Positions 1-52,198 of a stretch of 54,020 bases of DNA are shown piece after piece. Position 1 is the first letter of the stretch, and each line of letters opens with the position of its first letter. Position numbers and translations under genes: made by a program. The stretch lies in the IMG/VR virus record IMGVR_UViG_3300044691_000045, positions 1-54,020 of that record; one strand, given 5' to 3'. This stretch comes from a virus (taxonomy: Duplodnaviria > Caudoviricetes). The notes beneath the pieces were generated by a model. It had not been told where the DNA came from. It ran no database searches and worked only from the letters and a program-made list of their open reading frames with translations.

Positions 1-127
1 CATCCAGCGCTGTTTTGTAGTCCTTTTTCTGCTCCATCTCTTCTGCAAAGGTTAGTACAGACCGCGCGTGCTGTTCCTTTGTGGGCAGAAAGGTACGCTC
101 GCCCTCTGCGGCGCGTATCTCATCCAT
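1..127. repeat. Terminal direct repeat, identical to 53894-54020; circular assembly overlap
   Basis: The first 127 nt equal the last 127 nt, and the terS frame reads through the junction. 127 is a common assembler k-mer length. Confidence 0.95.
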
Positions 128-295
128 TACTTGAATCACAAATGGATCAAAATGCCAGCTAACACCGGCATCCATTTTCTTCTGTACGTCTTTTGGATCG
201 GAGTATACGACGGATGCCGCTTTCATTGTGTCGCGCGGATTCGCCAGCAATGCGCGTGCAAATATGCGTTTTTTCTCCTCTTCTGCGGCATCCAT
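1..295 (-). CDS. terS: Terminase small subunit, 5' part (continues at 54020..53721; ~155 aa, MDAAEEEKKRIFARALLANP...)
   Basis: ATG at 295 is in frame with ORF 53721..54020 across the junction; the gene lies directly upstream of terL. Confidence 0.7.
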   Translation of the reverse strand, partial: MDAAEEEKKRIFARALLANPRDTMKAASVVYSDPKDVQKKMDAGVSWHFDPFVIQVMDEIRAAEGERTFLPTKEQHARSVLTFAEEMEQKKDYKTALD

Positions 296-305
296 AGTAG
301 AACCT

Positions 306-355
306 CAAAAATAAGACCGCATAGACAATGTTTCACCACTCTGCTATGCGGTCTT
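306..355 (-). terminator. Stem-loop with U tract between the membrane-gene block and terS
   Basis: 12-bp stem AAGACCGCATAG (313-324) / CTATGCGGTCTT (344-355), followed by ATTTTT on the minus strand. Confidence 0.6.
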
Positions 356-364
356 TTGGCAAAC

Positions 365-1962: not shown

Positions 1963-3807
1963 TTACAGCGTTGACGCTATTTGCATTTTGACCCACGTGC
2001 CAAACCCGTCAGCAGCATTGCTTTGCCAGCCGCCGCCGGGTGCTTCTGAGTCTATCGTGCATTTCCACCAAGCACCGTTATCTGTCTCTACCCACACTGT
2101 ACCGAAGGCCCATGCTGGCGTGCATGCTCCGCGTCCAGCACCGGAACCTTGCGGCGGTCCTGTGGTAGTCATGGTAAGAAAAGAACTCTGCGAAGCTGTG
2201 AAAGGACCGTCACCGTTGAAAAATAGTTTATCGCCAATGGCTAGCTCATTGAACACTAACCCTTGCGCAGCGGTAACATGCATTTCAACTAGCGCGGCAT
2301 TAGACATCTGCGGCGTGCCTGCTGTGCAGTAATTGTTAGTCGCTGTTGGCTCTGTAGTCTGCGTAAAACCCGGACCCCATGACCCCGATGTAACATTGAT
2401 AAAGCACGTAGCAAACGTGTTATCTGCTGCGTTGTCATGGATGCTGTAGTTATTTACAGCGTCTAGCTGTATCTGATCGTGATTGGTAGTATTGAAAAAG
2501 TTATCATGTATAGCGGTACCACCGGATTGACCGCCGTTTGTGCCCGGTACACCGTACAACGCTTGATTCGCAGTTACAGTTGTGGGCGAAGATTGGCCTA
2601 TCTTCATTGGCAGTTCTGCGCCCTCAAAGTATGCAAACTCTACTGAATCAGCGCGCGTCAAACCAAATGCTATCCCGCCTATACCATTTGATTCTACGTT
2701 TACGCCGATAAAATGGTTGTTGTAGTTTGGTGATTGCGTACCGGCTGCACCGTAGTTAAGACCGCCACCGCCATATGTTGCGCTTGTGGGGTAGATGTTA
2801 GAAAGACCATCTATAATACCCCAGCCACTATTATTGTTGTAGTTGCCGCCAATTACGGTAAATGCATTGCTGGCAAAAGCGGGACGCCCTTCCAAGTTCA
2901 ATCCATTCATGTTTGACTGTGCGGTATCATTGAATATGGTTACCACGTTAGCACCGCGGCTAATCATTCCATCCCCGGCTGTAAAACCAGTGATATTCAT
3001 ATTTTCGATAAGACCGCCCTGCTCTGCGCCGTCCATGCGTATTCCACTACGCGCGGAGGCTGTGCCTGTGAGTTTACCGCCGCTAATGTGAAAGTGATCC
3101 GCGCCAGTAAGTACCTCGATGCCTGTATCACTGCCTGTGTAATGCAACGTTACCTGTGGATCGATTTGCAGATAGTCATTCGCGGAAACAGGCAACTGCA
3201 TTGTTACGCTGTAGTTGTACGTAACACCCGGTACATACGGAACAAACACGTGAGTATGCGTAGCAAATGCTGTGTTAACCAGCGTTCCTACGTCTGTGCC
3301 ATTGGACGGCGCTACTGTACCCACACCGCTATCAGGATTTGAGTTGCCGGGAGGACCGACGGGACCGGCTATTGGAATAAAGGACGGCAATGGTACTGCA
3401 AACATACCTAGATTTTGCGTACACAGGTTAAACGGCGCAGAGCCTTCGATGTCTACGTTGTTGTAGATCGTAAACTTCTGCGTACTGGTATTTTGTATTG
3501 TAATGCGATAACGTATGTTAGTTGGCGATGTTCCGCTCGCATCCGCAACAGATAACGGTGTAACTAATTGCCCGTTGGATATGCTTCTAGTAACTACGTC
3601 TGTTGTTGCAATACCACCGCTGGCAAAAGTGAATGGCTGCGGCTTATTCGTCTGCGGATTGAACGCTTGAATATAGAACATGCCCGTAAGCATAGGTACG
3701 TTCGATGCGTCCATAATGCATGGCGAAGGCGTTGTAACCGGCGTTAGCGTCTGTGCTCCGGCAAAGGTTGCGAGCAAGAAAATAGTAGTTACAAGCCATG
3801 TACGCAT
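1963..3807 (-). CDS. Signal-peptide-bearing tailspike-like protein: N-terminal adaptor domain, short collagen linker, right-handed beta-helix (pectin-lyase-like) domain
   Basis: N-terminus MRTWLVTTIFLLATFAGA|Q; GPVGPPG linker; N/G-rich beta-helix repeats (IENMNITGF, NNNSGWGI, ESNGIGGI, IHDNFF). Confidence 0.7.
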   Translation of the reverse strand: MRTWLVTTIFLLATFAGAQTLTPVTTPSPCIMDASNVPMLTGMFYIQAFNPQTNKPQPFTFASGGIATTDVVTRSISNGQLVTPLSVADASGTSPTNIRYRITIQNTSTQKFTIYNNVDIEGSAPFNLCTQNLGMFAVPLPSFIPIAGPVGPPGNSNPDSGVGTVAPSNGTDVGTLVNTAFATHTHVFVPYVPGVTYNYSVTMQLPVSANDYLQIDPQVTLHYTGSDTGIEVLTGADHFHISGGKLTGTASARSGIRMDGAEQGGLIENMNITGFTAGDGMISRGANVVTIFNDTAQSNMNGLNLEGRPAFASNAFTVIGGNYNNNSGWGIIDGLSNIYPTSATYGGGGLNYGAAGTQSPNYNNHFIGVNVESNGIGGIAFGLTRADSVEFAYFEGAELPMKIGQSSPTTVTANQALYGVPGTNGGQSGGTAIHDNFFNTTNHDQIQLDAVNNYSIHDNAADNTFATCFINVTSGSWGPGFTQTTEPTATNNYCTAGTPQMSNAALVEMHVTAAQGLVFNELAIGDKLFFNGDGPFTASQSSFLTMTTTGPPQGSGAGRGACTPAWAFGTVWVETDNGAWWKCTIDSEAPGGGWQSNAADGFGTWVKMQIASTL

Positions 3808-3840: not shown

Positions 3841-6800
3841 CTAACGTTTCTTTCTACCGTGCGCGGCATACGTAGTCTGCTGCGCAAGCGACGTACCGCC
3901 AACGGCGGTAACTGTCAAGGCTAGACTGTCGCTGTGTGTCAATGAGCCAGAAACCGCCGTCCACAGACCTACAGCCGATACGCTGCTGCCTTGCCCACTC
4001 ACCAGCACAGCACTATTCGCTGGCACGTACACACCCGCATGGCCGCTGGTGATCGTGGCTGTGTAAGGCGCACCGGGCACTGGAGGCGTATAGCTTAACG
4101 GTGATCCTTGCAACAGCACATTCGTGTTTACCTTGTCAGTTAATCCAGACGCATCCGACAGTGTGATTATATTCGCAGACGATATAGCTGCTGGGAATGT
4201 AACAGCCATATTCATATTAGTTGTGGATTCGTTTAGAATCACAACTGCCTGTGACCCGTCTTGGTGCTGCAAGCCGTACGCTTTTACGTTGTTACCGCTA
4301 GACGTTATAGACGTAGATAGCATGCTAGCTTGCTGGTTACCTTGCGTAGCAAGCGTGAACAACAGCAAGCCTGCGTACTTTGGCTGCTCTTGGTATGTGT
4401 ATCCGTCACTGTCCTGAATAACTGAGTACGGGTTTGATGGCGCAGTTCCCATACCGCCTGAAATCCAATTGAGCATAACAGCGCCAGATTTTGCTACAAC
4501 AAAGTTAAAATCTATAGCGTACAGCGCAGAACTAAACGTGTTGGATACGCCGTCTAATCCTCCACTGTAGATGTCGTTTGTTTCGTTTAAAACCCACGCA
4601 TCCGGATAAGTTGCTTGCGTGGTATGGATGCCGCTAACCATAGAGTTAAAAAAGCCGTCTGATGCTGTAAAACTAAGCATCTCTGCTATAGTTCCAGTAG
4701 TAGGCCCGTCATGGTAAAAGTGTGACGTATCCCATAGCAACAGATCGGCATTGGCTGCCTCCATTGCTGTTGAATAAGTGCCAGCGCTCGTTGCAACTCC
4801 TGTTGACGGTCCTACAAACTGAGCACTAGGTACAGCGGCTTGAATAGCCAGCGCATACGTACGCCATGCTGTTGCAAATGAGGATGCTGTATAACCAGCG
4901 CCGGTATAGCCTGTGCCGTCTGGTTCGTTGCCTATCTCAAATGCAACCAACGATGATCCTAGCTTTGATGCAACGTAGGTTGCCTCCGCTACTGCGACAG
5001 ATGTGGTATTGCCTAGAAAGCGCAGACCGTACGTGCATTTCCATCCGGTAGCTGTAAGAAACGCAGCTAGGTTGTCCACGTCAGACTGTGAAATTTGCCC
5101 GGTTGTTTGTCCTGCTCCTGCTGGTGTCCATACCTCGTTATCGCCAGTAACTAAGCGCAGTGTGCCATTGCCTAAGCCTTTGAAATCAGCAATACCGCGT
5201 GCGTTGTTAGAAGCAAAGAAACGTGTACCTGCCATCAGCTTTGACTTAGTGTAAGACAAGCCTTGAAAGCCAGCCGGTATGTTGCCCACAACTGCGGTTG
5301 TCATGGTGACAGTGCCGCTCGCGGGTGACGACGGTACAGGCTGTAGATTGGTTGCCGCTGCTGCCGAAGTTAGGACAACAGCTTGCGTACCGTTCGCTGC
5401 TAGCGTGAATGAGCTAGGCGCGGCTGTTACCCCTGTGGGCAAACCAGCAACCGTTACTGCTGCTGTAGCTGCGAACGTTCCTAGAGCCGTAGATACTACG
5501 TTTACTGTTGCCGTAGAACCTACAGTCATTGTTAGCGTATCTGGCGTGACCGCTATAGTAAAGTCAGACGGCGCACCCGCGCACGTGCCTGATAGCTTTA
5601 CCGGCTCTGTACCTAGTACGAAAGTACCGCCTGTAATCGTTGTGACATTTCCGCGCAAGTCTGTCTTTGTGGGGTAGCAGGTTGATACAGTTGTATGACG
5701 CTCATAACCTGTATCAAACATAAACTGTACTGTGCTGCCATCGTTGTTAAGTGCAGTTGCAGACCATACAGAATTGTATTTTGCATGTGCGCCTGTTACA
5801 TCGTCAAAATGCGTTGTGAATCGATTGATATTGTTGATCCAACCTAGCACAGTTGCATGCGCTTGCCCTGCTGGATGGATGCCGACAGCGTTTGTAAACT
5901 GATGGTTGCTGCGGTAGCAATCTGCTGCATTGGTATAGCTTGATCCGATGTACTCTATACCAAAACACGCAACAGAGTGTAGCTCGATAACGCTGCAATC
6001 GCCTGTTTTTAAGTAAGGAGAGCAATACGCATTCGTTGTCTTAGAACGATACAATGTTAGACCGCCGCTACCTGTGGAATCAAACTGATACCAATTGCTA
6101 CCGATAGGACCGCAGCCACGCGTGCCGCAACCTGTACCGTACAATGGATTTTGTGAGTCAGCAGTTATCAGCGCTAGTTGTCCCATATAACCGCGCTGAT
6201 TTGTTGCTGTGAATGTCGCACCTGTTAGTGAATCGGTACGCGTGTCGTCCTGCATCTGATCATCGAAGTAATAGCCGCCCTCTGTTTCGAGCATAGGCGC
6301 ATCAGGCAGCATCCATGTTTTGCTCTGAATAACTGAGCGCATACGCTGTCTAATCTCGATAATGGAATAGTTGCAATGTTTGTTTGTAGACGTGATGTTG
6401 GAAGGCGTACACATGGAACTACCGAAACCTGTGCGATGAATATATGATCCAGTAGTATCTGTGTTACTACCACTACCGTCACCAGATATAGCGTTAGTAG
6501 CTCCTACACCGGGGAATACAACCTCTTGGTCGCTGTAGTCATGATAACTAATGCCTATACGTGGATTATTAGCAAGATCAGGCGCAACAATGTGAAATTG
6601 ATCCAGCAGCGAGTTCATGTTCTGATCGCACAGACCATTCGTGCCGCCTATCGAGTATTGCTTACCACCGCACGCCATTGATCCGATGTAGTATGTGCAA
6701 TCACCGCAATAAGCAAACACGATACGCGCTTCGTCTGCTTCCTGTGCAGCTAACCGCGTCCATGTACCGCTCTGTTGGCCCCATTGCTGCCCAGTATCGC

Positions 6801-7476: not shown

Positions 7477-9805
7477 CGTTGCCTCCGTCAGTACCTAGTG
7501 TAGTGCCGCAAACTGTTGTGCTGTGTAATCCGCCGTTTGCTGTCACCTGAGTAGCGAAAAGATTGTTGCCGAAGTTATAGCCCATTGCTTCTAGCAGTAT
7601 GTTACCAGCGCCGCCGCCTGCGCCGGATAGCGATGTTCCGCCTGCGCACGGTCCACCGGGACCACCATCCGCACTAATCCGTCCGGTAGAACTGATAAGT
7701 AAGAATGTCGTTTTGATGTAGACAAAACCGCTAGGTTGACCGCCGAAGCCGCCTAGATGCGTACCGTCACCAAAGCCGGGAGCACCCTGCGCGCCGAAGC
7801 CGTGCTGTATCATCTCGCGCAGCAATGGCCCTGCGCCGGGGATCGTGAGGCCCGTAGTAGCGCTCATTCCCGCAACAGCAGAGGTACCACCGCCTAGCGG
7901 CGTGGATTGGTTAGGGTATTGCCGCCTTCCGCCGCCGTTGATCGCTGTAGTGCCGCCGCCAGCGCCGCCCTGCCCACCGGCAAGCGGAGTGAATGCAGAG
8001 CTTGTGCTTGTCTGTCCTGAAACCGTGCCAGCAATTGCGCCCGTTGCTGCTAGGCTACACGTACCGGATACTGCCGCAGGCCACTGCGATGTAAATGCAA
8101 TACCGCCAAGAGATGCAATGGTTGCAGATGGAACGTGGCTATTTATAATTCCAGCACCGTAGCACAGGAATGATGAAAAGTGTGCATAGCCATCTATGAA
8201 TGCTGTTGTACCGTTGACAGTGAATGAGCCGCTTAGACCATTACCGCCGTTTGCCATGATTGCAAACGGAGATGTACCATACATGAATGGCGCAGCAAAC
8301 AGTGTAAACGTGCTTCCATTGTAGCCAACATCCCCAAGCGCAACAACCTGTGGCGATGCTACCGACCATCCAGCAGTAGTTGTGCCGTCGCCTGTTGTAC
8401 TAGTCATCCACAACTGTGTAGACATATCGAACCAATACGCAGGATTAGAGACAGTACCGGAATTGATCGGCGTGTTTATCTCAAATTGCACAATTGGCGC
8501 AGTTGTTGTATCTATCCACGTAAGACTGCCGCAACTTCCATCTGACTGAGCAATAAAAGATGCAAACGGAAAGTGCATGCCAGCAATAGCACTGGGAGTT
8601 ACAGTATTAGTTCCTACCCAACTACAAGTGCCACTGCTATTATTCATAACTAGCGGCTGCGTAGATGTTCCGCGTTCGATAAACGTATTACCGCTGTAGC
8701 GTAAGTAATCTGGAATGCCGAGTGTGGGCGACGTTGTTACAGGTCCGGATACTACAGAATTTGCAACAGTAGAGTACAGCGCAGAGGACGCGCCTAGCGT
8801 CTGGTTAGACGGATTGTAGGTTAGCGGCGGTTGTGCCACAGCTACACCCGGCGTACCTTGCGCACCGGGCGCACCCGGCGTACCGTTAGCGCCATTGGCA
8901 CCGTTCGCACCAGCAGGCCCAGCCGGTATGCCCACATTCAGGGCGTACAGCGTGCCGCTGGGATTAGTTACGCTGATAGTCGGTGACGCACCATTGGCTA
9001 GTCCTATTGCAGTGCCAGCCTGAAAGGTAGGTGTTACGCCTGCGCTACCTGCTGGTCCTGTTGGCCCGGTTGCGCCTGTTGCGCCTGTTGCGCCGGTTGC
9101 TCCTGCTGTACCTGCTGGTATAGATACATCTAACGCAAACACGTGTGTGCTTACAGTGCGTACAGTAACAGACGGCAATGTACCCGCACTTGTCTGTGTA
9201 GTTGTACCGCTAATAAACGATGGCGGAGTTGTACCGCTTATACCTGCTATCTGCGCAGCAACATACGCCTGATCCGCAAGCGGAGAACCACCGGAGCTAG
9301 TAAGCGCACCCTTCAGTGTTGCACCATTCAACAGTGTTGTAACTGTGTCTGATGTGATAGTAGTGGTACCGTTGGATAGATTCAGGCCGTACGTACCAGC
9401 TACCGGCTGTGATCCGTTGTAAGTTTGCAGAATAATCGTACCGGCTAATAGATCAGTTGGCGACGTAGCCGCCTGTGATGCCGTACCGCTGGGAGATGTG
9501 CAATAGTTCCACGTAAGTGGCGCAAACGTTTGTGTAGCGAATGTAAACGTTTGCTTATTGAATACGTCAATCAAACGCACAGTGTACGTACCTGCTTGCA
9601 CGATCATGCGCGGAGATACAGTACCGTTTATTACTGCTGCGTATTGGGTTAGTCCCGCACCTGTGGGAGTAACAACAAGAGCGCCTTGCTGTTCCAATCC
9701 AGACGCGCCAGTAACGCAGCCATCGCCAAGCACTGTTACACTGGCTTGTCCAAAGAGCAAAGGTGCGCAAAGCGCTAGATATAAGCATAAAACAATTTTA
9801 CGCAT
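7448..9805 (-). CDS. Signal-peptide-bearing collagen-like fibre protein with glycine-rich C-terminal domain
   Basis: MRKIVLCLYLALCAPLLFG|Q; Gly-X-Y runs (GATGATGATGATGPTGPAG, GANGANGANGTPGAPGAQG); duplicated ...ALxVxIPAG module; GGGGAG-rich C-terminus typical of phage fibres. Confidence 0.75.
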   Translation of the reverse strand: MRKIVLCLYLALCAPLLFGQASVTVLGDGCVTGASGLEQQGALVVTPTGAGLTQYAAVINGTVSPRMIVQAGTYTVRLIDVFNKQTFTFATQTFAPLTWNYCTSPSGTASQAATSPTDLLAGTIILQTYNGSQPVAGTYGLNLSNGTTTITSDTVTTLLNGATLKGALTSSGGSPLADQAYVAAQIAGISGTTPPSFISGTTTQTSAGTLPSVTVRTVSTHVFALDVSIPAGTAGATGATGATGATGPTGPAGSAGVTPTFQAGTAIGLANGASPTISVTNPSGTLYALNVGIPAGPAGANGANGANGTPGAPGAQGTPGVAVAQPPLTYNPSNQTLGASSALYSTVANSVVSGPVTTSPTLGIPDYLRYSGNTFIERGTSTQPLVMNNSSGTCSWVGTNTVTPSAIAGMHFPFASFIAQSDGSCGSLTWIDTTTAPIVQFEINTPINSGTVSNPAYWFDMSTQLWMTSTTGDGTTTAGWSVASPQVVALGDVGYNGSTFTLFAAPFMYGTSPFAIMANGGNGLSGSFTVNGTTAFIDGYAHFSSFLCYGAGIINSHVPSATIASLGGIAFTSQWPAAVSGTCSLAATGAIAGTVSGQTSTSSAFTPLAGGQGGAGGGTTAINGGGRRQYPNQSTPLGGGTSAVAGMSATTGLTIPGAGPLLREMIQHGFGAQGAPGFGDGTHLGGFGGQPSGFVYIKTTFLLISSTGRISADGGPGGPCAGGTSLSGAGGGAGNILLEAMGYNFGNNLFATQVTANGGLHSTTVCGTTLGTDGGNGAIAAVYNF

Positions 9806-11166: not shown

Positions 11167-11503
11167 AAACGTTTGCTCCTGTGGGCACTGTCTGTACCGC
11201 TGTTAGCGTAGCACCGGAAATAGTATAATCAACTGTTTGTTGCCAAGTAACACCATTAACTACAAGAATTAAACTTAGCGAAGGACTAGGCGCGTGTGCA
11301 AGCGTTGCTGATCCACTGGCAAACGTAACTGCTTCGCTGTCCGCAAAATTCATCTTTGCGCTAGTGGGTAACATAGTGTTGTCTATGAACCCACTTGCAT
11401 TCAACTCAGGTATCTTACCAGCAGAGCCAGCACCCGCCGATGTTGCAACGGTTGCTGTCTCTGTCGGTTGCCCGGATACGTTTTTTAGTAGCTTTGTCGG
11501 CAT
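11147..11503 (-). CDS. Small virion-decoration-like protein; N-terminus paralogous to 11510..12022
   Basis: TSAGAGSAGKIPELNASGFIDNTML aligns with TSAGAGDAGKIPALNGSGLIDPTML; C-terminal VNGV..Q..DYTISG module. Confidence 0.7.
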   Translation of the reverse strand: MPTKLLKNVSGQPTETATVATSAGAGSAGKIPELNASGFIDNTMLPTSAKMNFADSEAVTFASGSATLAHAPSPSLSLILVVNGVTWQQTVDYTISGATLTAVQTVPTGANVYAWYRY

Positions 11504-12824: not shown

Positions 12825-13298
12825 TTAGTAGATACCGTAGGTAATGAGTGCTTGCGCGCCCGTTGGTGCTACTGACATATTCAGGCACAATCCATTGCCC
12901 ACAGGAACAGACAAGCCGCCTCCCATAGTAAATGATTCCTGATAGGTGTCTGTGACAGATGCCGTGCCTAGAAACAGCGGCGTTACTGTCGTGGTTCCGG
13001 TAACGCACGCTGCGCCTGTACCAGCGGCAAGGCCGAAGTTAGCAGGCGTGGCCGTCTGCTTTACTTTGAGGGTAACTGTGCAGATGTGGATGGATTGACG
13101 CGATGGAACCGTAGTAGGTACAGCGCCGTTGTACAGCGTAGTAGCTCCGGTAGGCGCAGTGACAAGCTGTGTCTCGCCTGCGGCTACGCTGGACACTGCT
13201 ACAGCATAAGGGCAGATGGCAGAGCCACCATTGCCGCGCTGCGCGAGAACCGCGCTGGGGAGGAGTAAGAGTGCAGCAGCAGCTAGAAACAGGCGCAT
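12825..13298 (-). CDS. Secreted Cys-containing beta protein
   Basis: Signal peptide MRLFLAAAALLLLPSAVLA|Q; AGGAG RBS; four Cys. Confidence 0.75.
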   Translation of the reverse strand: MRLFLAAAALLLLPSAVLAQRGNGGSAICPYAVAVSSVAAGETQLVTAPTGATTLYNGAVPTTVPSRQSIHICTVTLKVKQTATPANFGLAAGTGAACVTGTTTVTPLFLGTASVTDTYQESFTMGGGLSVPVGNGLCLNMSVAPTGAQALITYGIY

Positions 13299-13383: not shown

Positions 13384-13719
13384 TTATAGCGTGACACCAC
13401 CAGTAGCGGCGGCTGGGGTAGGCGTAGGCGTAGGCGTGAGTGCTGCGTTGTCAGCGGTAAGCAACTGCTGCAAGATCACGTCCACTGCCTGAATGTGGGC
13501 AACCTGCGCGGCAGTATCCGGAGTCTGCGGCCCTGCCAGCAACTTGGCAAGAATCGCAGCATTGCTGGTTTTGAGCGTAGCCACGTCGGTGTCTACAGTA
13601 CCCAATGCCTTGTCGATGTCGGTCAAATCCATGTTGACTGTTCTCCTCAAATCTTCGATAGAACTGCGGATGTCTGCAAGAGCCGTTAACACGTGATTTT
13701 GAAAACGGCGCTCATTCAT
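13384..13719 (-). CDS. Coiled-coil hypothetical protein with PT-repeat tail; second in-frame start at 13632
   Basis: Strong GAGGAG RBS before internal ATG 13632 (MDLTDIDK...); TPTPTPTP tail. Confidence 0.7.
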   Translation of the reverse strand: MNERRFQNHVLTALADIRSSIEDLRRTVNMDLTDIDKALGTVDTDVATLKTSNAAILAKLLAGPQTPDTAAQVAHIQAVDVILQQLLTADNAALTPTPTPTPAAATGGVTL

Positions 13720-33202: not shown

Positions 33203-33203
33203 C

Positions 33204-38670: not shown

Positions 38671-38978
38671 GCGTAAAACCTAACCTTTCTGTGACCACGT
38701 ATAGCTACGGCTAGCGGTTGGAACTCTGTCCACAACGCCGTCATGTGCAGCACGCTACCGTCAATGTAGATGCCTACATGCGGCTGATTACCGCTTTCCA
38801 TGAGCACAAGGCACGGCGTTGTGGGCACGTCCAGCCGCTCACCGCGTAGCGCAAACAACGTCTCACGATCCTGTGTAAACCTGTGCTCACCGTACAGACC
38901 GTGCCATGCCTCACGCACGAAATCTAGGCAGTCATAGTCTGGTGCTGGCACACGATCTAAGTAGGCGTCAACGCTCAT
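38667..38978 (-). CDS. NlpC/P60-like tail assembly protein
   Basis: YDCLDFV...HVGIY..G.VLH. Confidence 0.8.
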   Translation of the reverse strand: MSVDAYLDRVPAPDYDCLDFVREAWHGLYGEHRFTQDRETLFALRGERLDVPTTPCLVLMESGNQPHVGIYIDGSVLHMTALWTEFQPLAVAIRGHRKVRFYA

Positions 38979-42849: not shown

Positions 42850-43323
42850 CTACAGAATCCTAAACGCTGGCGCTGTCTCGCGTCCAACAATTAGCGCGCG
42901 ATCGACAAAACCCGCAGGCTGTTGCACGCTGGTACCGTTGTCTAGGTCCACGATGTACGGGGCATTGTTGGTAATGAAGATGGGCTGTCCGGGCGTCTTG
43001 TTCGATAAGATGGCGTTTGCCACGTCCAGCAGGATCGGTAAGTTAGCCTCACGTGTCGCTGGTGCGTTTGGGTTGACTTGTCCGGGGCCGGTACGCTCAA
43101 AAGGTACTCCCGGCTCAAAAGCCGGGTGGAAGTCGTCTAGGGCAGGCGTATCCAGCGTTACGTCCCAATTGGACATTGCCGTGCCTATGTCCACCGGGGT
43201 AACGCTGCCTAGATCAGCGACAATGGCAAGCGCAGTGAGCACCGCAGCCTGTGACGCGCCCTCTGCGATACGTGTGGGCAAGGTATCGAGATACGCGGCG
43301 AGTGCGAATAGATCATTTGGCAT
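42850..43323 (-). CDS. Tail completion/neck protein (HK97 gp10-like)
   Basis: TPVDIGTAMSNW, ITNNAPYI..L..G.S.Q.P.GFV. Confidence 0.8.
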   Translation of the reverse strand: MPNDLFALAAYLDTLPTRIAEGASQAAVLTALAIVADLGSVTPVDIGTAMSNWDVTLDTPALDDFHPAFEPGVPFERTGPGQVNPNAPATREANLPILLDVANAILSNKTPGQPIFITNNAPYIVDLDNGTSVQQPAGFVDRALIVGRETAPAFRIL

Positions 43324-43638: not shown

Positions 43639-44064
43639 TTAGTTTTTTGCTTCTGCGTCCCGTACTGTTTCGCGAAACGTTGCTATATCACGCGCTGCGC
43701 CCATCAGATTAAACAGCAAATCAGGCAGCACAGTAAACAACTCCTTAGCTGCTTTCTTGCTGTACACAATGGGTTTGTTGTGTGTGTCGTACACATTTTC
43801 CCACTTAACTAAAGCCACATCGCAAAACACTTCCATAAGGATAGCGTTAGCTTTGTCCTCAGATAGACCATCGGCAAGTTCCATCTCACGGCGATAAGGA
43901 CGGGTTGCGCGGTTCATTGCCGCTTGCCATTGCGTGTTAGCACCACCAGCACGACGCACGTAGAATGTGGGTATAGTGCCGTCCTCATTTGGTGGAAATG
44001 TAACTTGCTTACCGTTCTGTTCTGCATCGTGATCAGTTGCAAAATTCTTGAAAAGTGACGACAT
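43639..44064 (-). CDS. Tail assembly chaperone (G-like)
   Basis: RRAGGAN, WENV; ends at the slippery A AAA AAC. Confidence 0.85.
   Translation of the reverse strand: MSSLFKNFATDHDAEQNGKQVTFPPNEDGTIPTFYVRRAGGANTQWQAAMNRATRPYRREMELADGLSEDKANAILMEVFCDVALVKWENVYDTHNKPIVYSKKAAKELFTVLPDLLFNLMGAARDIATFRETVRDAEAKN
43642..43648 (-). other. Programmed -1 frameshift slippery site A AAA AAC
   Basis: GCA AAA AAC TAA; the -1 frame reads KLIDVLLYTLSMGAIEQ into ORF 43313..43612. Confidence 0.85.
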
Positions 44065-44110: not shown

Positions 44111-45646
44111 TCACATTGCGATGTTAGGCAAATACGGAAACAAGTTAACAAGCAACGTATAGTTGTTTGGACCGCGCGCCGCTGTCGTATCGATAGGCAG
44201 CGTAATTGGCTTGTCTTTCTCGATAGCAAGCTGTCCATTGCCAAGCGTGATTAGCGGCAGATCAAACAGCAAACCGCCGTTCGCTTTGGTCATGATCGAT
44301 GTCAGCATAACACTTGCATTGTTGCGAATAGCAGCAAGCGCAGCGGAGGTAGCAAAGTATACCGTCATGCTACCGGATACATCGAACTCACCTACATTGA
44401 TAGAGAACGCGCCAAGTGTGCCGATTGCTTTGTTACCCTTGACGTTGTTGTTAATCGTCAGCTTGAAATCAGAAGCGTACGCAAATAGCGCAGTAGGATC
44501 GAGCGTAGTTGGATCAACCAAAGCCAACCGCAGCAAGTACACATCGTTGGTGGAATTGTACGCATCTTCTGTTAGCAGAGCCGGACGCGGCCCACCAAAC
44601 ACGCCCTGCGTACCTGTGCGCTGTATGTCGTCCAGTGCAGCAAACGAAAGATCAAGGTTGATCTTCTGCGCAGTGGGCATGTTTATTGTCATCTCGTTAG
44701 GCACTGCGCCTACAAGATACTCAGCTTGGATGCCGTTGCCGTCGTTGCCTAGCGTGCGCTCAAGCGTGTACGAAAATGTTTTGATAAGCGTGGGATCAGA
44801 TTCGTTGCGAACCACGCGACCAAACCACATCCAGATAGACTGCGCGGCTGCGGTTTCATTCGCAGGAACCCACGTAGTAATATCAAAAATCATGGTGTGC
44901 GCAGCAACGCTGGCTATACGCGCGAATCCGGGCGCATTGTTCACATACTTAGACAGCGAGGAATCACCGCCAACAAATACCCATTCGCCCGGAATAAGAC
45001 CAAACTGCGTCATATCCTTTACGATAGATGTGCAGATAATCTGGCTGCCTGATACAGCAATAGACAGATCACCAACAGCGAAAGCAAAACCTACTTGCTC
45101 AAGATTTGCTGTGTTTGGTGGCGCTGCCTCAACTGTGGGTAACAGCGTGACAGTTGCAGCAAGCGTAGCTGTCACAGTTCCAAGCACAAATATCTGGTTA
45201 TTGCCGGTAGCGCCGAATCCGCTGGATAGAACAATATCGCCAGCGTGAAAGCGCGTCAATCCAGATGCAGCAACAAAGCCGGTAGCTCCAGCAGCGGTAA
45301 TAGGAACCGCTGTGCCCACAACAGGCAAGGTAGCTGCTTTCTGTCGCACAGCAGCGAACAAGAAACCTTGCAACAGATCGTACATGTTGTGCTGCGTTAG
45401 ATCGGTATTGAATCCGCCCGATGCCTCAAGATCAGTGGTAGTACCCTTTGATTGCTGGCGCGTTGGATTGATCGGAGTACGCGCAACTGTGGTAATCTTC
45501 GCACCAAAATCCTTGTAAGAGTTCGGCTCTAGAGGATGCCACGTGGCCGTAATATTGCCGCTACCGTCAGCCGGTAGAGTGCGCAATGACAACTCCTGCG
45601 CATAAGATAATCCAGTAATATTGCTGTCAATCGTGATAGGCGGCAT
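44111..45646 (-). CDS. Major tail tube protein
   Basis: IDSNITGL..AQE, LEPNSY.DFG, SYTLER.LG; position in the tail module. Confidence 0.85.
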   Translation of the reverse strand: MPPITIDSNITGLSYAQELSLRTLPADGSGNITATWHPLEPNSYKDFGAKITTVARTPINPTRQQSKGTTTDLEASGGFNTDLTQHNMYDLLQGFLFAAVRQKAATLPVVGTAVPITAAGATGFVAASGLTRFHAGDIVLSSGFGATGNNQIFVLGTVTATLAATVTLLPTVEAAPPNTANLEQVGFAFAVGDLSIAVSGSQIICTSIVKDMTQFGLIPGEWVFVGGDSSLSKYVNNAPGFARIASVAAHTMIFDITTWVPANETAAAQSIWMWFGRVVRNESDPTLIKTFSYTLERTLGNDGNGIQAEYLVGAVPNEMTINMPTAQKINLDLSFAALDDIQRTGTQGVFGGPRPALLTEDAYNSTNDVYLLRLALVDPTTLDPTALFAYASDFKLTINNNVKGNKAIGTLGAFSINVGEFDVSGSMTVYFATSAALAAIRNNASVMLTSIMTKANGGLLFDLPLITLGNGQLAIEKDKPITLPIDTTAARGPNNYTLLVNLFPYLPNIAM

Positions 45647-46074: not shown

Positions 46075-46445
46075 GCCTTAAAATCCACGCGGTACAGGAT
46101 CACCGTATCTGCCGGTTTAACTTCCTGAATAGATGCTATATCCAGTACCTTACCGCCGCGTATAACTCTATCAGTTAATGAGGGCACAAACGGGATACCA
46201 CCTGCCATTAAACCACGCATAGACAGCGCCGTTACATCCGTACCCTTCACCAACTGTATTAACGAGTTCAACGACCCCTTTGGCTGCACAAACGCCATCT
46301 GTACCGCATACGCACGTACTACGCTTGTGCCCGTTTTCCACTTCTGTACATTGGCTACAGTGTAAGTTTGTTGCCATAGTACCTGTTCTCCATCGCGCAT
46401 AATTACACGCTTTGCCATTGCTCCTAAACGCGCCGCTGTGCCCAC
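46071..46445 (-). CDS. Head closure / head-tail joining protein
   Basis: Position; P...ILY C-terminus. Confidence 0.65.
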   Translation of the reverse strand: MGTAARLGAMAKRVIMRDGEQVLWQQTYTVANVQKWKTGTSVVRAYAVQMAFVQPKGSLNSLIQLVKGTDVTALSMRGLMAGGIPFVPSLTDRVIRGGKVLDIASIQEVKPADTVILYRVDFKA

Positions 46446-46447
46446 AC

Positions 46448-47035
46448 CTACACCCGTATCGTTTTCAGGCCGAAAGCAGCGCCGGTTGTGAGTAATGGTG
46501 CGAGAATGGATTTTACACGCGGCAATAGTACAGCGTATGGCATAGAACTATTTTGCGAATACTGAGTAACAATGCCGTCCATAGATTCCATAGTCACTCT
46601 ACCGCCGTCAATTACTGTGTTTCTGCGCAACTCGATACCGTCTACAAGCTGCGCCATAACTAACTCAGCGGTCGCAGTCTTTAGCTCTGTGGGTATCAGA
46701 TTCGCGTTAGGATCAACGTATGTAAACAACGGCGTAGAAAAACGCAAGTTGTAAAACATAGAGTTAGGATCGGCAAACACGTTGTACGGCACAACCGTAC
46801 GGGGCCATTGCAATGGCTGTGTGTAGGACGTTGGGCGTCCTTTGTACTCGCCAGCAAGTGACTCCAGATAGTCAGTTGCTAAGACCATGTGCGAGATTTG
46901 CGGGTTGATGAGTTGACCACGCGAAAAGGCGTACTGCGTCACAAACGCCTGCGTTGTGTAGGCATTGGCATTTGCTACCCCTGTGCCGTCCTCAACTATA
47001 AGGACGGCACTCGGAGGAGTTGGGGTAGTTCCCAC
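46448..47035 (-). CDS. Head-tail adaptor (DnaT-like annotated family)
   Basis: LIVEDGTGVANANAY, ATDYLE, QPLQWPR. Confidence 0.8.
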   Translation of the reverse strand: MGTTPTPPSAVLIVEDGTGVANANAYTTQAFVTQYAFSRGQLINPQISHMVLATDYLESLAGEYKGRPTSYTQPLQWPRTVVPYNVFADPNSMFYNLRFSTPLFTYVDPNANLIPTELKTATAELVMAQLVDGIELRRNTVIDGGRVTMESMDGIVTQYSQNSSMPYAVLLPRVKSILAPLLTTGAAFGLKTIRV

Positions 47036-47630: not shown

Positions 47631-48665
47631 TTAGCCGTTGGTTACAAGGAACACAATTGGCATTTGCTTGCGTGCAACTGTGCGCGTCCAGTTCGCAGCC
47701 GCCGCAAGATCAGCGACGTTAGGAGAACCGGGATTGTTTGCACCACCGTGCAAAGTTGCGCCCATGTTCCACGAATGCCCAAACGGATGGATGAGCCAAT
47801 TGTAGCGCTCAAACCATGTATCCACACCAGCACCGTTGCCCTGCTGCGGCAAGTGGTACAACTCAGCAGCCGGAGGACCGCCAAGCTCGCTGCCGTAGCC
47901 GATAGTGCCGTCACCGGATAGCACGCTGGTGTACTTGAAATTGCCGCTGCCATCGGGACCGGAAACAGGCATCGAATCATCGGCAATAACGCGCATGCCT
48001 TGAAACGTTGCAATGTCCGGGGAACCGTCTGCGGGATGCTCGTACACAATCTGGTTATTCTGGCGCATGCGGAGCATGACGTTTGAATGTACCAGAAGCG
48101 TACGGTACAAATCGTGCTGGTCGCCCGAAGTGTACACAGCAGCAAGGAAGCTGTTGAGATTGAACATGTTTGCGTTACCGGCAACACCGGATGCCGCGCT
48201 AATGTCAATCACCATATCGCTGGCGTTGTTCAACTTGTTCGCGCCCAACATGCCATTGAACACGGCAATAACATAGCGCTGCCAGCGGCGAGTCCAGTAC
48301 GTGCCGGTACGGTCTTTGATGCGCTGCATAGGATCAGCGCCGATAACCGTAGGAATGATGTCAGCACAGGCCCACGATTGGTTAATGTACATCTTGCGTG
48401 CGAACCACTCACCTGTACCAACCTTGTTAGGTACAGCAATATCCGCTGGATTGTCAGTGGAATAGTTCGGTTCGATGGTCGCGTCCAGATCACCGAAGAA
48501 AGGAACAGTGATAAACGTACCAGACTTGGCTAGAATCGCGTCTAGCTCCGCAGTACGGACAACAACACCAGATTGAAAGATGTTGGTGAGTTCCGGGCTA
48601 TTTAGCGTTTCATAGCCTGCCCATACTGCGGGGATGAATACATCAGCAAACTGTGTCGTTGCCAT
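47631..48665 (-). CDS. Major capsid protein
   Basis: MATTQFADVFIP, QSGVV, PFFGDL, ADPM, HPFG, NWTR; follows the scaffold gene. Confidence 0.9.
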   Translation of the reverse strand: MATTQFADVFIPAVWAGYETLNSPELTNIFQSGVVVRTAELDAILAKSGTFITVPFFGDLDATIEPNYSTDNPADIAVPNKVGTGEWFARKMYINQSWACADIIPTVIGADPMQRIKDRTGTYWTRRWQRYVIAVFNGMLGANKLNNASDMVIDISAASGVAGNANMFNLNSFLAAVYTSGDQHDLYRTLLVHSNVMLRMRQNNQIVYEHPADGSPDIATFQGMRVIADDSMPVSGPDGSGNFKYTSVLSGDGTIGYGSELGGPPAAELYHLPQQGNGAGVDTWFERYNWLIHPFGHSWNMGATLHGGANNPGSPNVADLAAAANWTRTVARKQMPIVFLVTNG

Positions 48666-48688
48666 GTTGCCTCATATGGTACCAGCGC

Positions 48689-49423
48689 CTACCGTACTCG
48701 ACTGGGAGGGCTGTATCTAGGCGTAGACGATGGAGCTATCTGCGCGTATGCCGAGGGATCAGCCTGAGCCAGTGTCTTCCTTTCCTCGAAAGACATCTCA
48801 GACCACTTTTTCCCACTGGCACCGCCATGTGAGGTTTGGCCGTTGGCACCGCCACCAGCCTTGCTACCTACAAGGATAGTACGTAACTCTGGATCAGCAC
48901 GCAATGCTTTTTTTAGATCATCCTTAGTCATGCCGGAAACGTTGCCTAATTCATCCAGCACGTGTAACTCCGGTGTGCCATCTTCCCTGTAATCCACTTT
49001 CAGCCGCTTTTGTATCAGCAGCGCCATTGCTTTCGGAGATGTCGAAATCTCTGCTGCAATTGCTTGCGCCGTGTCGTCAACATGCGTTTTTTCGACATAC
49101 TTGCGCAATCCGTCAATGGTCGCCTGTAGCTTTGCCTGCTCGCGTGCGTGTGCATCCTTCCACTGCTTTTCTTTCTCCGTCAGTGTGCCAGCCTGCTTTG
49201 TTTCAGCAGCTACAGCGCGTGCTTCGGACTCTAATGCGCGTGCTTCCGCTTTCTGGCGTTCGCTCTTTTCATGATCTTTTGCACGCTTGAGCGCGGATAC
49301 GTCATCGAATCCGCCTTCCAAGTCCAGCAGGTATGAGCCGTCGTTTTCCTCTGTATACAGCGCCTTGGTTGCCGCATCAAGTAGTGCAAATTCTTCTGCC
49401 GTAAGTATTTTCTTAACGCTCAT
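48689..49423 (-). CDS. Capsid scaffolding protein
   Basis: LYTE..DGSY.LD.EG, coiled coil, GSKAGGGA. Confidence 0.8.
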   Translation of the reverse strand: MSVKKILTAEEFALLDAATKALYTEENDGSYLLDLEGGFDDVSALKRAKDHEKSERQKAEARALESEARAVAAETKQAGTLTEKEKQWKDAHAREQAKLQATIDGLRKYVEKTHVDDTAQAIAAEISTSPKAMALLIQKRLKVDYREDGTPELHVLDELGNVSGMTKDDLKKALRADPELRTILVGSKAGGGANGQTSHGGASGKKWSEMSFEERKTLAQADPSAYAQIAPSSTPRYSPPSRVR

Positions 49424-49435
49424 TTTTGTAGTCTC

Positions 49436-50500
49436 CTAGTTCGCTGTATAGCTAGCTCTCATCTTCTTTACAAATTGGTCTAGTGTCAATGGGGGAGTTA
49501 CATTATATTCAGGAAAACCAGCAGTAGCTAAGTCTATAGGCTGCTCACCGTACAACGGAAACGTACGGCTGCGGCAGTTAGGATGTGCAGGCGGCAATGG
49601 TCCTTCGCCTACAACATAGATGTTGCCATCGCGCGTTCTACACACTTCACTAGTACGGCTATCAAGTATAGATGCCCATTGATAATAAGACAGATATGCG
49701 CTGCCTATTCCCATCTGTACTATAGCGCTAGTGTGCTGCACAAGCGTATTAACTACGGCATCATTCGCAGCCGCCAAACGAGATAGTACACCACCCCTAA
49801 AACCATCAGGATCACCAGCTTGTGCGTTACGTCCAATAGCTATACCTGTGAATGCCTCTAATGTTTCTTGCGGCGTCCATGCGTTTGCGTACGCTTTTGT
49901 AATCAAGCTGGATGATGCAGTAATAGCATAGTTAACAAACCACGCAATCATCTGTTCTGGCGTTTGACCGTTTGCAGGAACCGGAGCATTACTGACTGTT
50001 GCCCACAAACTTTCATTGCCTGCATCGTCTCCGGAGATTGCGGAGATACCGTATAGTGGCGATGCGTCAACGTGTGTGGGTAACTGGTTTGCTGTTTGTG
50101 TAAGCTGTTCATGCTCTGTAGCAGTAAGATCGTTTTCTTGTTCGGGAGTGCGCCCGGTAACATGCACATAGATGTCCCTTGTTACTTCCACGTCAGTTGC
50201 AAGAAAGTCTTGCAATATCTTTATCAACTGCTGTGTGTATATGCTGTAGAACTGTATCTGCGCACGCTTGAAACGATACACAAAAGTTATCAACTCTTTC
50301 CTAGTAAAAGAGTCCATGCGCTCATACCGTACGCCGTGAATAAACGCAGCAAACTGACTATAAATTTGCGTAAGCAATTCACGATAATTCTGCGCGAAAC
50401 CTGCTTTGACACCCTCTAAGTATACTTGGTGTCTGTACAGCAGATTGAACAGATATATGTTTTGTGCCGTAAATAGTGCGTCAAACTTTTTAGTTGCCAT
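49436..50500 (-). CDS. Head morphogenesis protein (SPP1 gp7/Mu F-like)
   Basis: W.SILDSRTSEVCR.RDG...PPAHPNCRS. Confidence 0.88.
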   Translation of the reverse strand: MATKKFDALFTAQNIYLFNLLYRHQVYLEGVKAGFAQNYRELLTQIYSQFAAFIHGVRYERMDSFTRKELITFVYRFKRAQIQFYSIYTQQLIKILQDFLATDVEVTRDIYVHVTGRTPEQENDLTATEHEQLTQTANQLPTHVDASPLYGISAISGDDAGNESLWATVSNAPVPANGQTPEQMIAWFVNYAITASSSLITKAYANAWTPQETLEAFTGIAIGRNAQAGDPDGFRGGVLSRLAAANDAVVNTLVQHTSAIVQMGIGSAYLSYYQWASILDSRTSEVCRTRDGNIYVVGEGPLPPAHPNCRSRTFPLYGEQPIDLATAGFPEYNVTPPLTLDQFVKKMRASYTAN

Positions 50501-52198
50501 TTATGTTGTCTGCGTAGTTTTAGGACTTGCTCCTGCAACCGCTGCTTTCTCACCGCCCGGATGCTTGCCGATAGTAGGTTGCGGTTTACCGCCGCCTGCT
50601 GGTGGCTTACCGCTACCGTTAGGCTTACCACCGGGAGGCGCGGCACCACCTGCTGGTGGCTTCGCGCTATCTGCGAATGGATCAGCTTGCGGCAACAGCG
50701 TAATAGTCTGCGCAGCCAACTCTTTACTAATCTCTTCCTGCGCTTGTTTGTCATCCTCAAGTAGCAAGCCGCCGCTGCGCAGATTCGCGCGATACTCAGG
50801 CCAACTAATAGCGCCGCTAGTCCATTCTTTCAGTAATTGTCCTCTATCCTGTGCATTCATCTTGGACAGATCGAAGTCTTTGCTAAGTGTTATTTTGATG
50901 TCTGTTTCATCTGCGTTCACAAAGCCAGCGCACCAGTGCATAGATTTTGTAAAAGCACTAGATACATTCTTAGATATGTTAGAAAGAATTGAACTTTCTG
51001 TGTCGTGATCTACCAGCGCTTCTGTTGCTGTACGTCCACCTGTTTTTTCAGGCTCTACCAGCTTCGCACCTAGCGCCAGCATTTGTTGTTCTTTGTGCGT
51101 CATAGCTTCCATAGCCATGCTATTCGGTGATACCTCCAGCAAGCCGATAGCAGCACCGACCGGCAACGGTATGCCTCCCATAGCACCAACGCGCAAAGAA
51201 CCTTTCAAAGTTTGTTCTAGCCATTCCTGCGTTAGTCCAGTAACCCACGGTGTAGGTTGTCCAACAACAAAAACGCTTTCCTCATAGTCTGCACTATTAC
51301 GATAATGCGAGATGTTGAGCGATGCCATATCGTACAAGATTGGCACTTCTGGTCTTGGATCATTGCTGGTAGCACCGCAGAATGTAAACGGTATTTCGTC
51401 CAACGGAGCGCCTTGCGCATTCAAAGGCGTGTACTCCGGCAACGCTACAAGTTTGTTTTTCTTGGTCGCGTCTGCTGTCTGCGGCTTAACGGATGCTGCC
51501 TGAGATGTAGCAGCAAGTTTGGCTTGTTCCGAATTAGGCTCTACCCACAACTGCGCAACGTGGTTGCCGGTTTCTGGATCGATACGCAGCACACGGTACT
51601 GTAGCAATTCCTGCGCAGAGAAACCATCCTCGCCTATGCCGAAGTTTTTCTCGCGCAGCACAACTAATGAGAGTATCTGACGTGCGCCTTTCTGTACTGT
51701 GCGCCAATTGATAATATCCCACGGTTGATAAACTGTAATGGTAGGACGCACATAACCGTCCTCAAGATCAGCAACCGTTGCCACTGCACCGTCTGGATTA
51801 GGCGGATAATCGGCAAGTAATCCGCAGCGGCTATACGCAAGTGTGTAGTCTACTGCGCGTGTTAAAGACTGCTCCAAAGACAAGCCTGTGCCGTCGCAGT
51901 CATCTACCATTACGTTGCTAAGTGCTGTGGGCAGATTGATAACCGGCGCTTCTAAAAACACCTGCCCAACCATACCGGCATGTGTTCTGCGCGTTACGTT
52001 GTAGAACACTGCGCGCCTAACATATGCCTCATAGCGCAGCATATTTGCCGCGCTCTTATCTGCTGCATTAGGCATAGGCAGATAGCGCTCACGCAACAAC
52101 GAATCTTTGATGGTAACTTCGCCAGCAAGACAATCACGTATAAGATCATACTGTTTCCGTAGTTCTCTTAATTCTGCGCGCTCATACGTGACATCCAT
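50501..52198 (-). CDS. Portal protein (DUF4055-like)
   Basis: Y..Y..RAVFYN.T.RT, IINWR, HYRNSADYEE; follows terL. Confidence 0.88.
   Translation of the reverse strand: MDVTYERAELRELRKQYDLIRDCLAGEVTIKDSLLRERYLPMPNAADKSAANMLRYEAYVRRAVFYNVTRRTHAGMVGQVFLEAPVINLPTALSNVMVDDCDGTGLSLEQSLTRAVDYTLAYSRCGLLADYPPNPDGAVATVADLEDGYVRPTITVYQPWDIINWRTVQKGARQILSLVVLREKNFGIGEDGFSAQELLQYRVLRIDPETGNHVAQLWVEPNSEQAKLAATSQAASVKPQTADATKKNKLVALPEYTPLNAQGAPLDEIPFTFCGATSNDPRPEVPILYDMASLNISHYRNSADYEESVFVVGQPTPWVTGLTQEWLEQTLKGSLRVGAMGGIPLPVGAAIGLLEVSPNSMAMEAMTHKEQQMLALGAKLVEPEKTGGRTATEALVDHDTESSILSNISKNVSSAFTKSMHWCAGFVNADETDIKITLSKDFDLSKMNAQDRGQLLKEWTSGAISWPEYRANLRSGGLLLEDDKQAQEEISKELAAQTITLLPQADPFADSAKPPAGGAAPPGGKPNGSGKPPAGGGKPQPTIGKHPGGEKAAVAGASPKTTQTT

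Follow-up and report, generated by a model that had tools for sequence, protein, structure and literature searches.

The closest described systems are the primase-polymerases (PrimPols) of NrS-1 and of the plasmid pRN1, which start primers at defined template sequences. For the NrS-1 PrimPol, Zhu et al. (2017, as quoted in PMC8718748) give the template site 5'-TTTGGTTA-3' together with 5'-GTGG-3' and 5'-GTGA-3', which are used with higher efficiency; the enzyme is also quoted as starting at a bare GTG (PMC8718748). In the passages of PMC7102993 that deal with this site, NrS-1 priming is described as relying for the most part on a single 8-nt sequence, a length well beyond that of other PrimPol sites, and the site as having few genomic copies (two are reported), located in mid-genome and perhaps serving as an origin. 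The helix-bundle domain (HBD) of pRN1 ORF904 reads 5'-GTG-3' (Boudet et al., 2019, as quoted in PMC8718748; PMC2965215). Here we analyzed a stretch of 54,020 nt (hereafter the window), IMG/VR virus record IMGVR_UViG_3300044691_000045, which is a complete phage genome from soil with a unique length of 53,893 bp. The window is rich in an octamer that reads 5'-TGTGGGYA-3' on its G-rich strand, and it encodes an NrS-1-type PrimPol. We propose that the copies of this octamer are probably dispersed template recognition and primer-initiation sites of the phage's own PrimPol; by analogy with NrS-1, we infer that the enzyme would bind the word and that priming would start there.

Known replicative primases read 3–5 bases, which occur everywhere by chance, and the sites of T7 gp4 and other DnaG-type primases (5'-GTC-3' and similar, 3–5 nt) are accordingly frequent. 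Those systems resemble the window in having priming sites dispersed over both strands for lagging-strand synthesis, but their primases are zinc-finger enzymes rather than members of the AEP family, and we know of no report of a genome recoded to create DnaG-type primase sites. The NrS-1 system is alike in its homologous enzyme, which combines PrimPol, HBD and C-terminal helicase, and in its G/T-rich site of 8 nt, read on a single-stranded template; the window word has the same length and holds the GTGG core found in the characterized sites. It is unlike the window in that it has only a few sites, grouped close to the primase gene, whereas the window has 36–51 copies on both strands of a lytic-type genome. 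Positions 6–7 also differ, being TT in the NrS-1 site and GC or GT in the window word. The pRN1 ORF904 enzyme is similar in its HBD-mediated, sequence-specific start of primers, and its GTG lies inside the window word, but it belongs to an archaeal plasmid and its trinucleotide site is common enough by chance to need no enrichment.

Counts, layout and selection of the octamer

In the plus-strand reading of the window, TGCCCACA occurs 22 times and its complement TGTGGGCA 15 times, 37 copies together. Because of a 127-bp terminal repeat, site 53973 is a duplicate of site 80, and the unique 53,893 bp hold 36 copies, 22 and 14 by strand. The word TGTGGGCA is read on the plus strand at 80-87, 5434-5441, 11180-11187, 13494-13501, 19603-19610, 20627-20634, 21886-21893, 23576-23583, 34085-34092, 37353-37360, 38820-38827, 40244-40251, 43273-43280, 51926-51933 and 53973-53980 (the duplicate). 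It is read on the minus strand, where the plus strand shows TGCCCACA, at 5283-5290, 8929-8936, 12896-12903, 15258-15265, 18277-18284, 18787-18794, 20909-20916, 22958-22965, 23561-23568, 25207-25214, 27841-27848, 30724-30731, 32390-32397, 32457-32464, 33838-33845, 35467-35474, 38268-38275, 42557-42564, 45313-45320, 46439-46446, 50000-50007 and 53575-53582. A variant adds 15 copies, nine as TGTGGGTA on the plus strand (16151-16158, 26101-26108, 31624-31631, 32170-32177, 35272-35279, 43966-43973, 45134-45141, 46688-46695 and 50075-50082) and six on the minus strand, where the plus strand reads TACCCACA (2089-2096, 3318-3325, 13773-13780, 15902-15909, 17122-17129 and 51542-51549). All positions come from direct counts. 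The original prediction, which was made from the letters of the window, had listed 34 positions of the main word, all of them correct, and missed only 8929, 53575 and 53973; its figure of about 15 variant copies agrees with our count of 15, and its eight example positions were right.

TGCCCACA is the commonest octamer of the genome, the runner-up having 22 copies, and the reversed control word is found 2+0 times. The limits of the motif are sharp at 8 bp (T-R-C-C-C-A-C-A), with all other single substitutions represented by 0–7 copies each, and its flanks are near random, with only a weak preference for T at position -2 (18/36). The density is 0.67 copies per kb, or 0.95 per kb when the A variant is included. 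When a set of 59 coding sequences (CDSs) was used, 29 of the 36 copies fell within CDSs, 16 in sense and 13 in antisense orientation, and the remaining seven lay in the ~11% of the genome outside this set, which bears out the earlier remark that the copies occur in coding and non-coding DNA and in both orientations. The same source placed the highest density at 18–24 kb; this interval does hold 9 copies against 4.0 expected, but the Poisson P of 0.02 belongs to a test made post hoc. An inverted pair that it had also pointed out is present, with TGCCCACA-N7-TGTGGGCA at 23561-23583 (left arm 23561-23568, right arm 23576-23583), ~510 bp past the stop codon of the PrimPol gene.

Markov models of orders 0–3 give expectations of 1.65, 2.42, 1.43 and 2.58 against the 36 copies found, and order 4 gives 7.6. 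At orders 5 and 6 the expectation rises to 21.2 and 34.0, but the vanishing of the enrichment there is circular because, in a 54-kb genome, the 6- and 7-mers on which such models are trained stem almost wholly from the word itself (42 copies of GCCCACA and 44 of TGCCCAC). The order-6 null was rejected for this reason. Codon-preserving nulls were run with 2000 shuffles each on the 59-CDS set. Against the 29 copies observed in CDSs, shuffling of synonymous codons with the proteins kept gave 2.98 +/- 1.60 (maximum 10) and permutation of codons gave 1.82 +/- 1.33 (maximum 8); for the TACCCACA variant, 12 copies in CDSs compare with 2.14 +/- 1.39 and 1.57 +/- 1.28, respectively. Thus, disappearance under a high-order Markov or codon-shuffled model, named at the outset as what would undo the claim of enrichment, is seen only at the two Markov orders that absorb the signal, and the claim withstood the codon null.

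Opportunity counts point the same way. Over half of the sense-strand places open to a synonymous spelling of TGCCCACA are used (16/30), and codon choice is visibly shaped by the word, with 12 of the 18 L/M/V-P-T tripeptides in the window spelled NTG CCC ACA. For TGTGGGCA, 13 of 42 synonymous places are used, mostly as xxT GTG GGC Axx. The word sits in the reading frames that cost the proteins least. Given the codon nulls and these opportunity counts, the word is therefore selected as DNA.

The sites are also laid out in an orderly way. Spacing was more even than random in 13/13 tests, the coefficient of variation (CV) lying below the random mean in each, with values of 0.55 in phage CAjan and 0.47 in phage 9g (P <= 1e-4). 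Alternation between strands exceeded chance in 8/9 series, the runs z being +2.1 to +2.2 in the window and ~+2.7 (up to +2.75) in CAjan and 9g. Strand polarity does not switch anywhere along the genome, the 22 and 14 copies being interleaved. This layout fits start sites needed on both strands genome-wide, and not a replichore-type or end-oriented signal. Between phages related closely enough for alignment, sites are retained more often than the background would give: of the 8 sites that can be aligned between Guyu and KL1, 6 are intact in all 8 bases, their flanks being 73–82% identical (P ~1e-4), and from JG012 to MiCath 6 of 11 sites are kept (P ~1e-4), with one further site changed to the sister word. 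Between phages that are further apart, the sites occupy other positions at a maintained density.

A PrimPol as the proposed reader

The product of 24092-26371 (minus strand, 759 aa) is, from its Pfam and PDB matches, identified as an NrS-1-type AEP PrimPol with a helix-bundle domain and a helicase. Pfam PF22763 (NrS1-1_pol-like_HBD) matched aa 208-259 (E 2.7e-10; 40.4 bits against a cutoff of 27.9), and the DUF3987 helicase domain matched aa 449-618 (E 6e-19). A phmmer search of PDB returned the NrS-1 N300 structures 6A9W, 6K9A and 7RR3 (E ~1e-18, aa 7-241), in which the catalytic motifs align, IDFD with IDLD (DxD) and SPSGKGLH with SPSGDGLH (SPSGxGLH), and it also returned 7OLA, a primase-helicase chain. 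A single-sequence AlphaFold model of aa 1-310 was unusable, with a mean predicted local distance difference test score (pLDDT) of 32.8. The original prediction had envisaged dispersed binding sites for a phage or host protein, and this general idea is supported, with the protein most consistent with a phage-encoded rather than a host-encoded one. The candidate readers it had named, at 14278, 18776, 16728 and 26399, fared less well: Pfam and PHROGs scans of these and of the small early open reading frames (ORFs) returned no convincing DNA-binding reader, the product of 16728-17048 having a sub-threshold LuxR-type (GerE) match only, and the PrimPol gene, whose correlation with the word is the best of all candidates, was not among them.

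The association of the word with PrimPol was examined with a profile made from the first 330 residues of 19 PrimPols and searched against the six-frame ORFs of 32 genomes. Of the 24 genomes matched by the profile, 20 have an octamer containing TGTGG at z >= 12.8, which is the top word in 19 of them; none of the eight unmatched genomes has one (best z 4.7). The Fisher P of 5e-5 for this association overstates the evidence, because the genomes are related and were chosen by us. Further analyses revealed that other genes of the replication module dissociate from the word. Four phages carry the Cas4 exonuclease and the DEAD helicase and have neither an NrS-1-type PrimPol nor a TGTGG word, namely 1N2-2 (Idiomarinaceae), Mcat26 (Moraxella), CGphi29 (Salicola) and CRP-902 (Roseobacter), the last of which has a PF09250 Prim-Pol instead. 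Phage ZCSE2 has the word together with a divergent PrimPol N-terminus (65.9 bits to the profile) and no clamp homolog, and Axy18 has the word and no detectable exonuclease homolog. With exonuclease, helicase, clamp and family A DNA polymerase (PolA) thus dissociated from the word, the NrS-1-type PrimPol is the one module gene shared by all word-bearing genomes and missing from all word-free genomes that lack PrimPol. On a quick PrimPol tree the word labels cluster, with 7 changes against 11.6 when shuffled and 0/200 shuffles as low, the window and Axy18 lying outside the main GGGCA clade.

The exonuclease and helicase also bear on a reading in which the word is a phage-private Chi-like signal, read on single-stranded DNA by the ResIII/DEAD helicase and the Cas4-domain exonuclease and switching degradation to recombination, so that phage DNA and not host DNA would be spared. 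The word is G-rich, asymmetric, 8 nt long and over-represented on both strands; the helicase occurs in 20/20 word-bearing genomes and the exonuclease in 17 of the 18 scored, plus ZCSE2; and genes for a Sak4-like annealing protein and an SSB adjoin. We nevertheless consider this reading quite unlikely, given the four phages that have both genes without NrS-1-type PrimPol or word, the word in Axy18, and a GTGG core that matches known PrimPol specificity instead. To our knowledge, though no search aimed at it was made, no Chi-like activity of this helicase-nuclease pair has been published. The E. coli Chi site, 5'-GCTGGTGG-3', is set by the host RecBCD or AddAB enzyme and lies in the host chromosome with a strand skew; it shares with the window word the character of an over-represented, asymmetric, G-rich octamer in coding DNA, whereas the window word tracks the lineage of the phage and is scarce in the bacterial genomes examined. 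As a separate observation, the window holds five copies of GCTGGTGG, at 35969, 50598 and 50652 on the plus strand and at 43943 and 48852 on the minus strand, two of which lie within a 24-nt direct repeat in the portal-like gene.

TGTGG words differ among phages. TGTGGGCA is the top octamer of Guyu (Pseudomonas; 16 copies against 0.39 expected), KL1 (Burkholderia; 18 against 0.36), RcHartney (Rhodobacter; 16 against 0.24) and Kharn (Sphingomonas; 18 against 0.46), and it is enriched in Axy18 (Achromobacter; 11 against 0.86). TGTGGTTA, which is one base from the NrS-1 site, reaches 41 against 2.3 in CAjan (E. coli; 50 of 59.7 kb counted) and 22 against 2.1 in EC151 (Enterobacter). TGTGGTCA is enriched in 9g (E. 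coli; 30 against 1.9 in 50 of 56.7 kb), JG012 (P. aeruginosa; 35 against 2.2), MiCath (P. putida; 34 against 2.7) and BUCT548 (Stenotrophomonas; 42 against 2.3). Two words are enriched in VpKK5 (Vibrio), TGTGGCCA with 21 against 1.8 and TGTGGTCA with 22 against 2.0, and also in record G313, TGTGGCTA with 14 against 1.0 and TGTGGTCA with 15 against 1.75, while ZCSE2 (Salmonella) has TTGTGGGT, 31 against 1.4. A few of 80 distant capsid relatives in IMG/VR also carry the window word, with whole-record counts of 27 and 14 in two records of 48 kb, 21 and 16 in two of 51 kb and 11 in one of 25 kb, the reversed-word controls being 0–1. One word thus spans phages of alpha-, beta- and gamma-proteobacteria (five host genera), whereas phages of one host differ, GGGCA in Guyu and GGTCA in JG012 for P. 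aeruginosa, GGTTA in CAjan and GGTCA in 9g for E. coli; the word therefore follows the phage lineage, not the host. Word and phrase searches found no published phage paper on such words. Supplementary figures S3–S6 of PMC8718748 may contain additional data on the sites. It should be noted that a palindromic 10-mer, TGTGGCCACA, shows the word on both strands at 31839 and 41391 of VpKK5 and at 30253 of MiCath, and that the IMG/VR record G311 (loci L166-L168), a capsid relative without NrS-1-type PrimPol, has an octamer of its own, GGTGTACG (16 against 0.46 expected), which may be the site of a different enzyme.

These comparisons make it exceedingly improbable that the signal is dictated by the host, whether for DnaA titration, as a host Chi, as an uptake sequence or as another chromosomal word. 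CCACA is common to the word and the DnaA box, and one Limnobacter metagenome-assembled genome has 320 copies of the word against 113 of the reversed control. However, the C that the word has in place of the T at box position 4 prevents a match to TTWTNCACA at all 51 sites, and the window holds 2 box matches against 5.3 +/- 2.3 expected. The specificity of DnaA is conserved, which would call for one box in all phage lineages, and the words differ even between phages of one host. The DnaA boxes suggested earlier thus find no support here. Bacterial genomes were sampled as 5 named genomes plus a class sample of 301, 306 in total, and the host conclusion is independent of three unpublished genomes (G049, G306 and G151) and of one under limited access (G258). 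The five named genomes hold 103–320 copies in 2.9–6.3 Mb, a Pseudomonas genome having 128 copies against 160 of the reversed control, and none of the 306 is dense in the word, the highest value among them being 0.11 per kb, compared with 0.67 per kb for the phage. The density of a DNA uptake sequence (~one per kb in the chromosome) was likewise not found in the 306 genomes, the phage host itself not being identified. The Chi-like or host signal proposed earlier finds no support in view of words that differ within one host, of the searched bacterial genomes, which are not dense, and of the interleaving of the 22 and 14 copies on the two strands, without replichore-like polarity.

Another phage protein could in principle own the sites: the product of the small gene at 26399-26695 upstream of PrimPol, a nucleoid-coating protein or a stoperator-type regulator. 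A small helix-turn-helix gene lies just upstream of PrimPol in KL1 (gp09) and RcHartney (gene 36), a 98-aa ORF takes that position in the window, and 7 of the 36 sites fall in the ~11% outside the CDS set. We regard this as rather improbable, since the 98-aa product matched no Pfam or PHROG family and gave no tblastn match in the 25 genomes compared, 29 of the 36 sites lie in genes without orientation to transcription, and no repressor or integrase family was found among the 40 different ORFs scanned. In cluster A mycobacteriophages, stoperators are 13 bp long, lie mostly between genes, are oriented with transcription and are bound by the immunity repressor. As in the present array, a single asymmetric word recurs dozens of times along the genome, but the window sites are 8 bp, mostly genic and in both orientations, and the stoperator-like repression first suggested for them does not agree with this distribution.

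Base modification, or single-strand interruptions of the T5/tf type, would make the word the target of a DNA-modifying or nicking enzyme. Some word-bearing relatives (CAjan and 9g) encode 7-deazaguanine pathways, and phages with site-specific nicks are known. We think this very unlikely, as no 7-deazaguanine-type pathway was seen in the annotation or scanned ORFs of Guyu, KL1, RcHartney and the window, and a modification target alone does not explain 25-fold enrichment, even spacing and strand alternation.

In the NrS-1 genome we counted one exact copy of TTTGGTTA and four of TGTGGTTA; four related words fall at 17198-17445, within an iteron-like array that closely follows the primase gene. 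This array (17160-17460) consists of AAGTGTAACC repeats, with TTTGGTTA on the complement at 17198 and with TGTGGTTA and TGTGGTCA in facing arrangement; the top octamer of NrS-1 is AGTGTAAC (11 against 0.46 expected). The same polypeptide might thus do another job at the word, the sites being iteron-like loading or assembly sites for a PrimPol-helicase hexamer or secondary origins. Such a role would accord with the position of the NrS-1 words beside the primase gene, with the two NrS-1 copies being perhaps an origin in the passages cited above (PMC7102993), with the window inverted pair 510 bp from the PrimPol gene and with the primase-helicase chain 7OLA among the matches. It is unlikely, however, as 36–51 dispersed sites that are evenly interleaved on the strands and mostly in genes are unlike origins, and close inverted pairs are not kept among relatives.

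Priming by the PrimPol is the preferred reading of the array. An enzyme specific for 8 bases would meet a chance site only once per ~65 kb of strand, and this rarity would imply that selection wrote a site every ~1–1.5 kb. The sites, alternating between strands, would have been made mostly by synonymous codon choice, and both strands could serve for the start of primers, whether in lagging-strand synthesis or in re-priming. Close beyond the PrimPol gene, the inverted pair at 23561/23583 is a possible place of bidirectional initiation.

Several observations weigh against this proposal. NrS-1, the sole enzyme with biochemistry, comes from a genome without genome-wide enrichment of the word, and its PrimPol, as quoted in PMC8718748, accepts bare GTG, which would make 8-nt sites unnecessary. 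The association with PrimPol is confounded by shared ancestry and by genome choice, and 4 of the 24 PrimPol genomes lack the word, those of the temperate phages phi105, PSA and NrS-1 and of Klebsiella phage Carvaje; Carvaje, phi105 and PSA form a separate PrimPol clade on the quick tree. The DEAD/ResIII helicase occurs in all 20 word-bearing genomes and in word-free ones too, so that it is not sufficient for the word but could be a co-reader. On the quick tree the window PrimPol is a long branch (1.73) beside the GGTYA-word clade (support 90, not starred) and does not group with the eight other GGGCA-word PrimPols. The alignment columns by which the word classes can be told apart (aa 76 and 133) belong to the catalytic domain and not to the HBD, and PrimPol shows no excess of them (2, against 1 in the helicase, 3 in the clamp and 2 in the exonuclease). 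The even spacing is only marginal in the window itself (CV 0.75–0.77 against 0.96, P 0.035–0.05), and the polarity that a simple one-directional lagging-strand model predicts is absent. Close inverted pairs, finally, are not conserved among the relatives compared, which leaves an origin at 23561-23583 as a conjecture.

The phage genome and its other repeats

The ORFs and family scans identify a tailed phage with a GC content of 50% and, as searched in the window, no tRNA genes. An exact direct terminal repeat of 127 bp (1-127 = 53894-54020) means that the record is either circularly closed or terminally redundant. The structural block lies on the minus strand and includes the terminase large subunit (52208-53737), a portal-like DUF4055 protein (50501-52198), a head morphogenesis protein (49436-50500), the major head protein (47631-48665), a T5-type tail tube protein (44111-45646) and large tail proteins. 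The replication module (27672-35639, plus strand) comprises a Sak4-like protein, SSB, the Cas4-domain exonuclease (29652-30623), the ResIII/DEAD helicase (30633-32216), a clamp-like processivity factor and the family A DNA polymerase (33582-35639); a RusA resolvase gene lies at 14902-15297 on the minus strand. The gene order is like that of Septimatrevirus and Kilunavirus phages, e.g., Guyu and KL1.

No close relative was found: megablast of 6 kb against GenBank phages gave zero matches, a search for loci related by the PolA protein gave none, and the best capsid identity was 41% among GenBank phages and 49% among 5.8 billion proteins. Two soil-metagenome runs contain the phage sequence as contigs; the second (X2) holds a near-identical copy over 15000-34999, with two G>T differences near contig ends. 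The PolA of the window matches the polymerases of Vibrio phage VpKK5 (568 bits) and Salmonella phage ZCSE2 (495 bits) only, and not those of Guyu, KL1 and RcHartney, although its other replication genes are common to them. This difference in affinity indicates that the replication module is mosaic. In addition, 14278-14823 and 18776-19021 are DUF7303/phrog_7597 paralogs, the longer of which is common to GGGCA-word relatives only.

Other repeats were also noticed. A second block, ACCGGAGG (often AACACCGGAGGCC), has 11 copies, 10 of them on the plus strand, at 19650-23339, 10115, 16753 (minus strand), 24549 and 28355. Nine of the 11 copies are followed by an ATG after 5–12 nt, and the block resembles a shared ribosome-binding element; it marks several small early genes at 19.6–23.4 kb that an 80-aa ORF list missed. 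CGGGGCCG occurs 9 times against 0.56 expected, always in plus orientation, at 646, 28542, 28912, 35982, 36078, 40526, 43083, 52567 and 53620.

Implications for phage replication

If the PrimPol reads the word, an 8-base site that needs to be written into the genome appears to be in use across a whole group of phages with alpha-, beta- and gamma-proteobacterial hosts, which would be unusual. Many such phages are in culture, including members of Septimatrevirus, Kilunavirus, Titanvirus, Queuovirinae and Loughboroughvirus.

A more far-reaching idea, which we put forward as possible though doubtful, is that the array is a replication address code: an 8-nt-specific PrimPol would prime efficiently only on word-bearing DNA, the genome would be recoded accordingly, and word and enzyme would diversify together, giving the GGGCA, GGGTA, GGTYA, GGCYA and TTGTGGGT classes. 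Were this true, the replisome would be able to distinguish phage DNA from that of the host, in which the word is 6- to 30-fold rarer, and co-infecting phages of different word classes could be replication-incompatible. On the main proposal, if it is correct, the word would suggest that the replisome discriminates between phage DNA and other DNA, would offer a simple sequence read-out of primase specificity, would predict where Okazaki fragments start and would serve as a marker by which uncultured phages may be classed by replication module.

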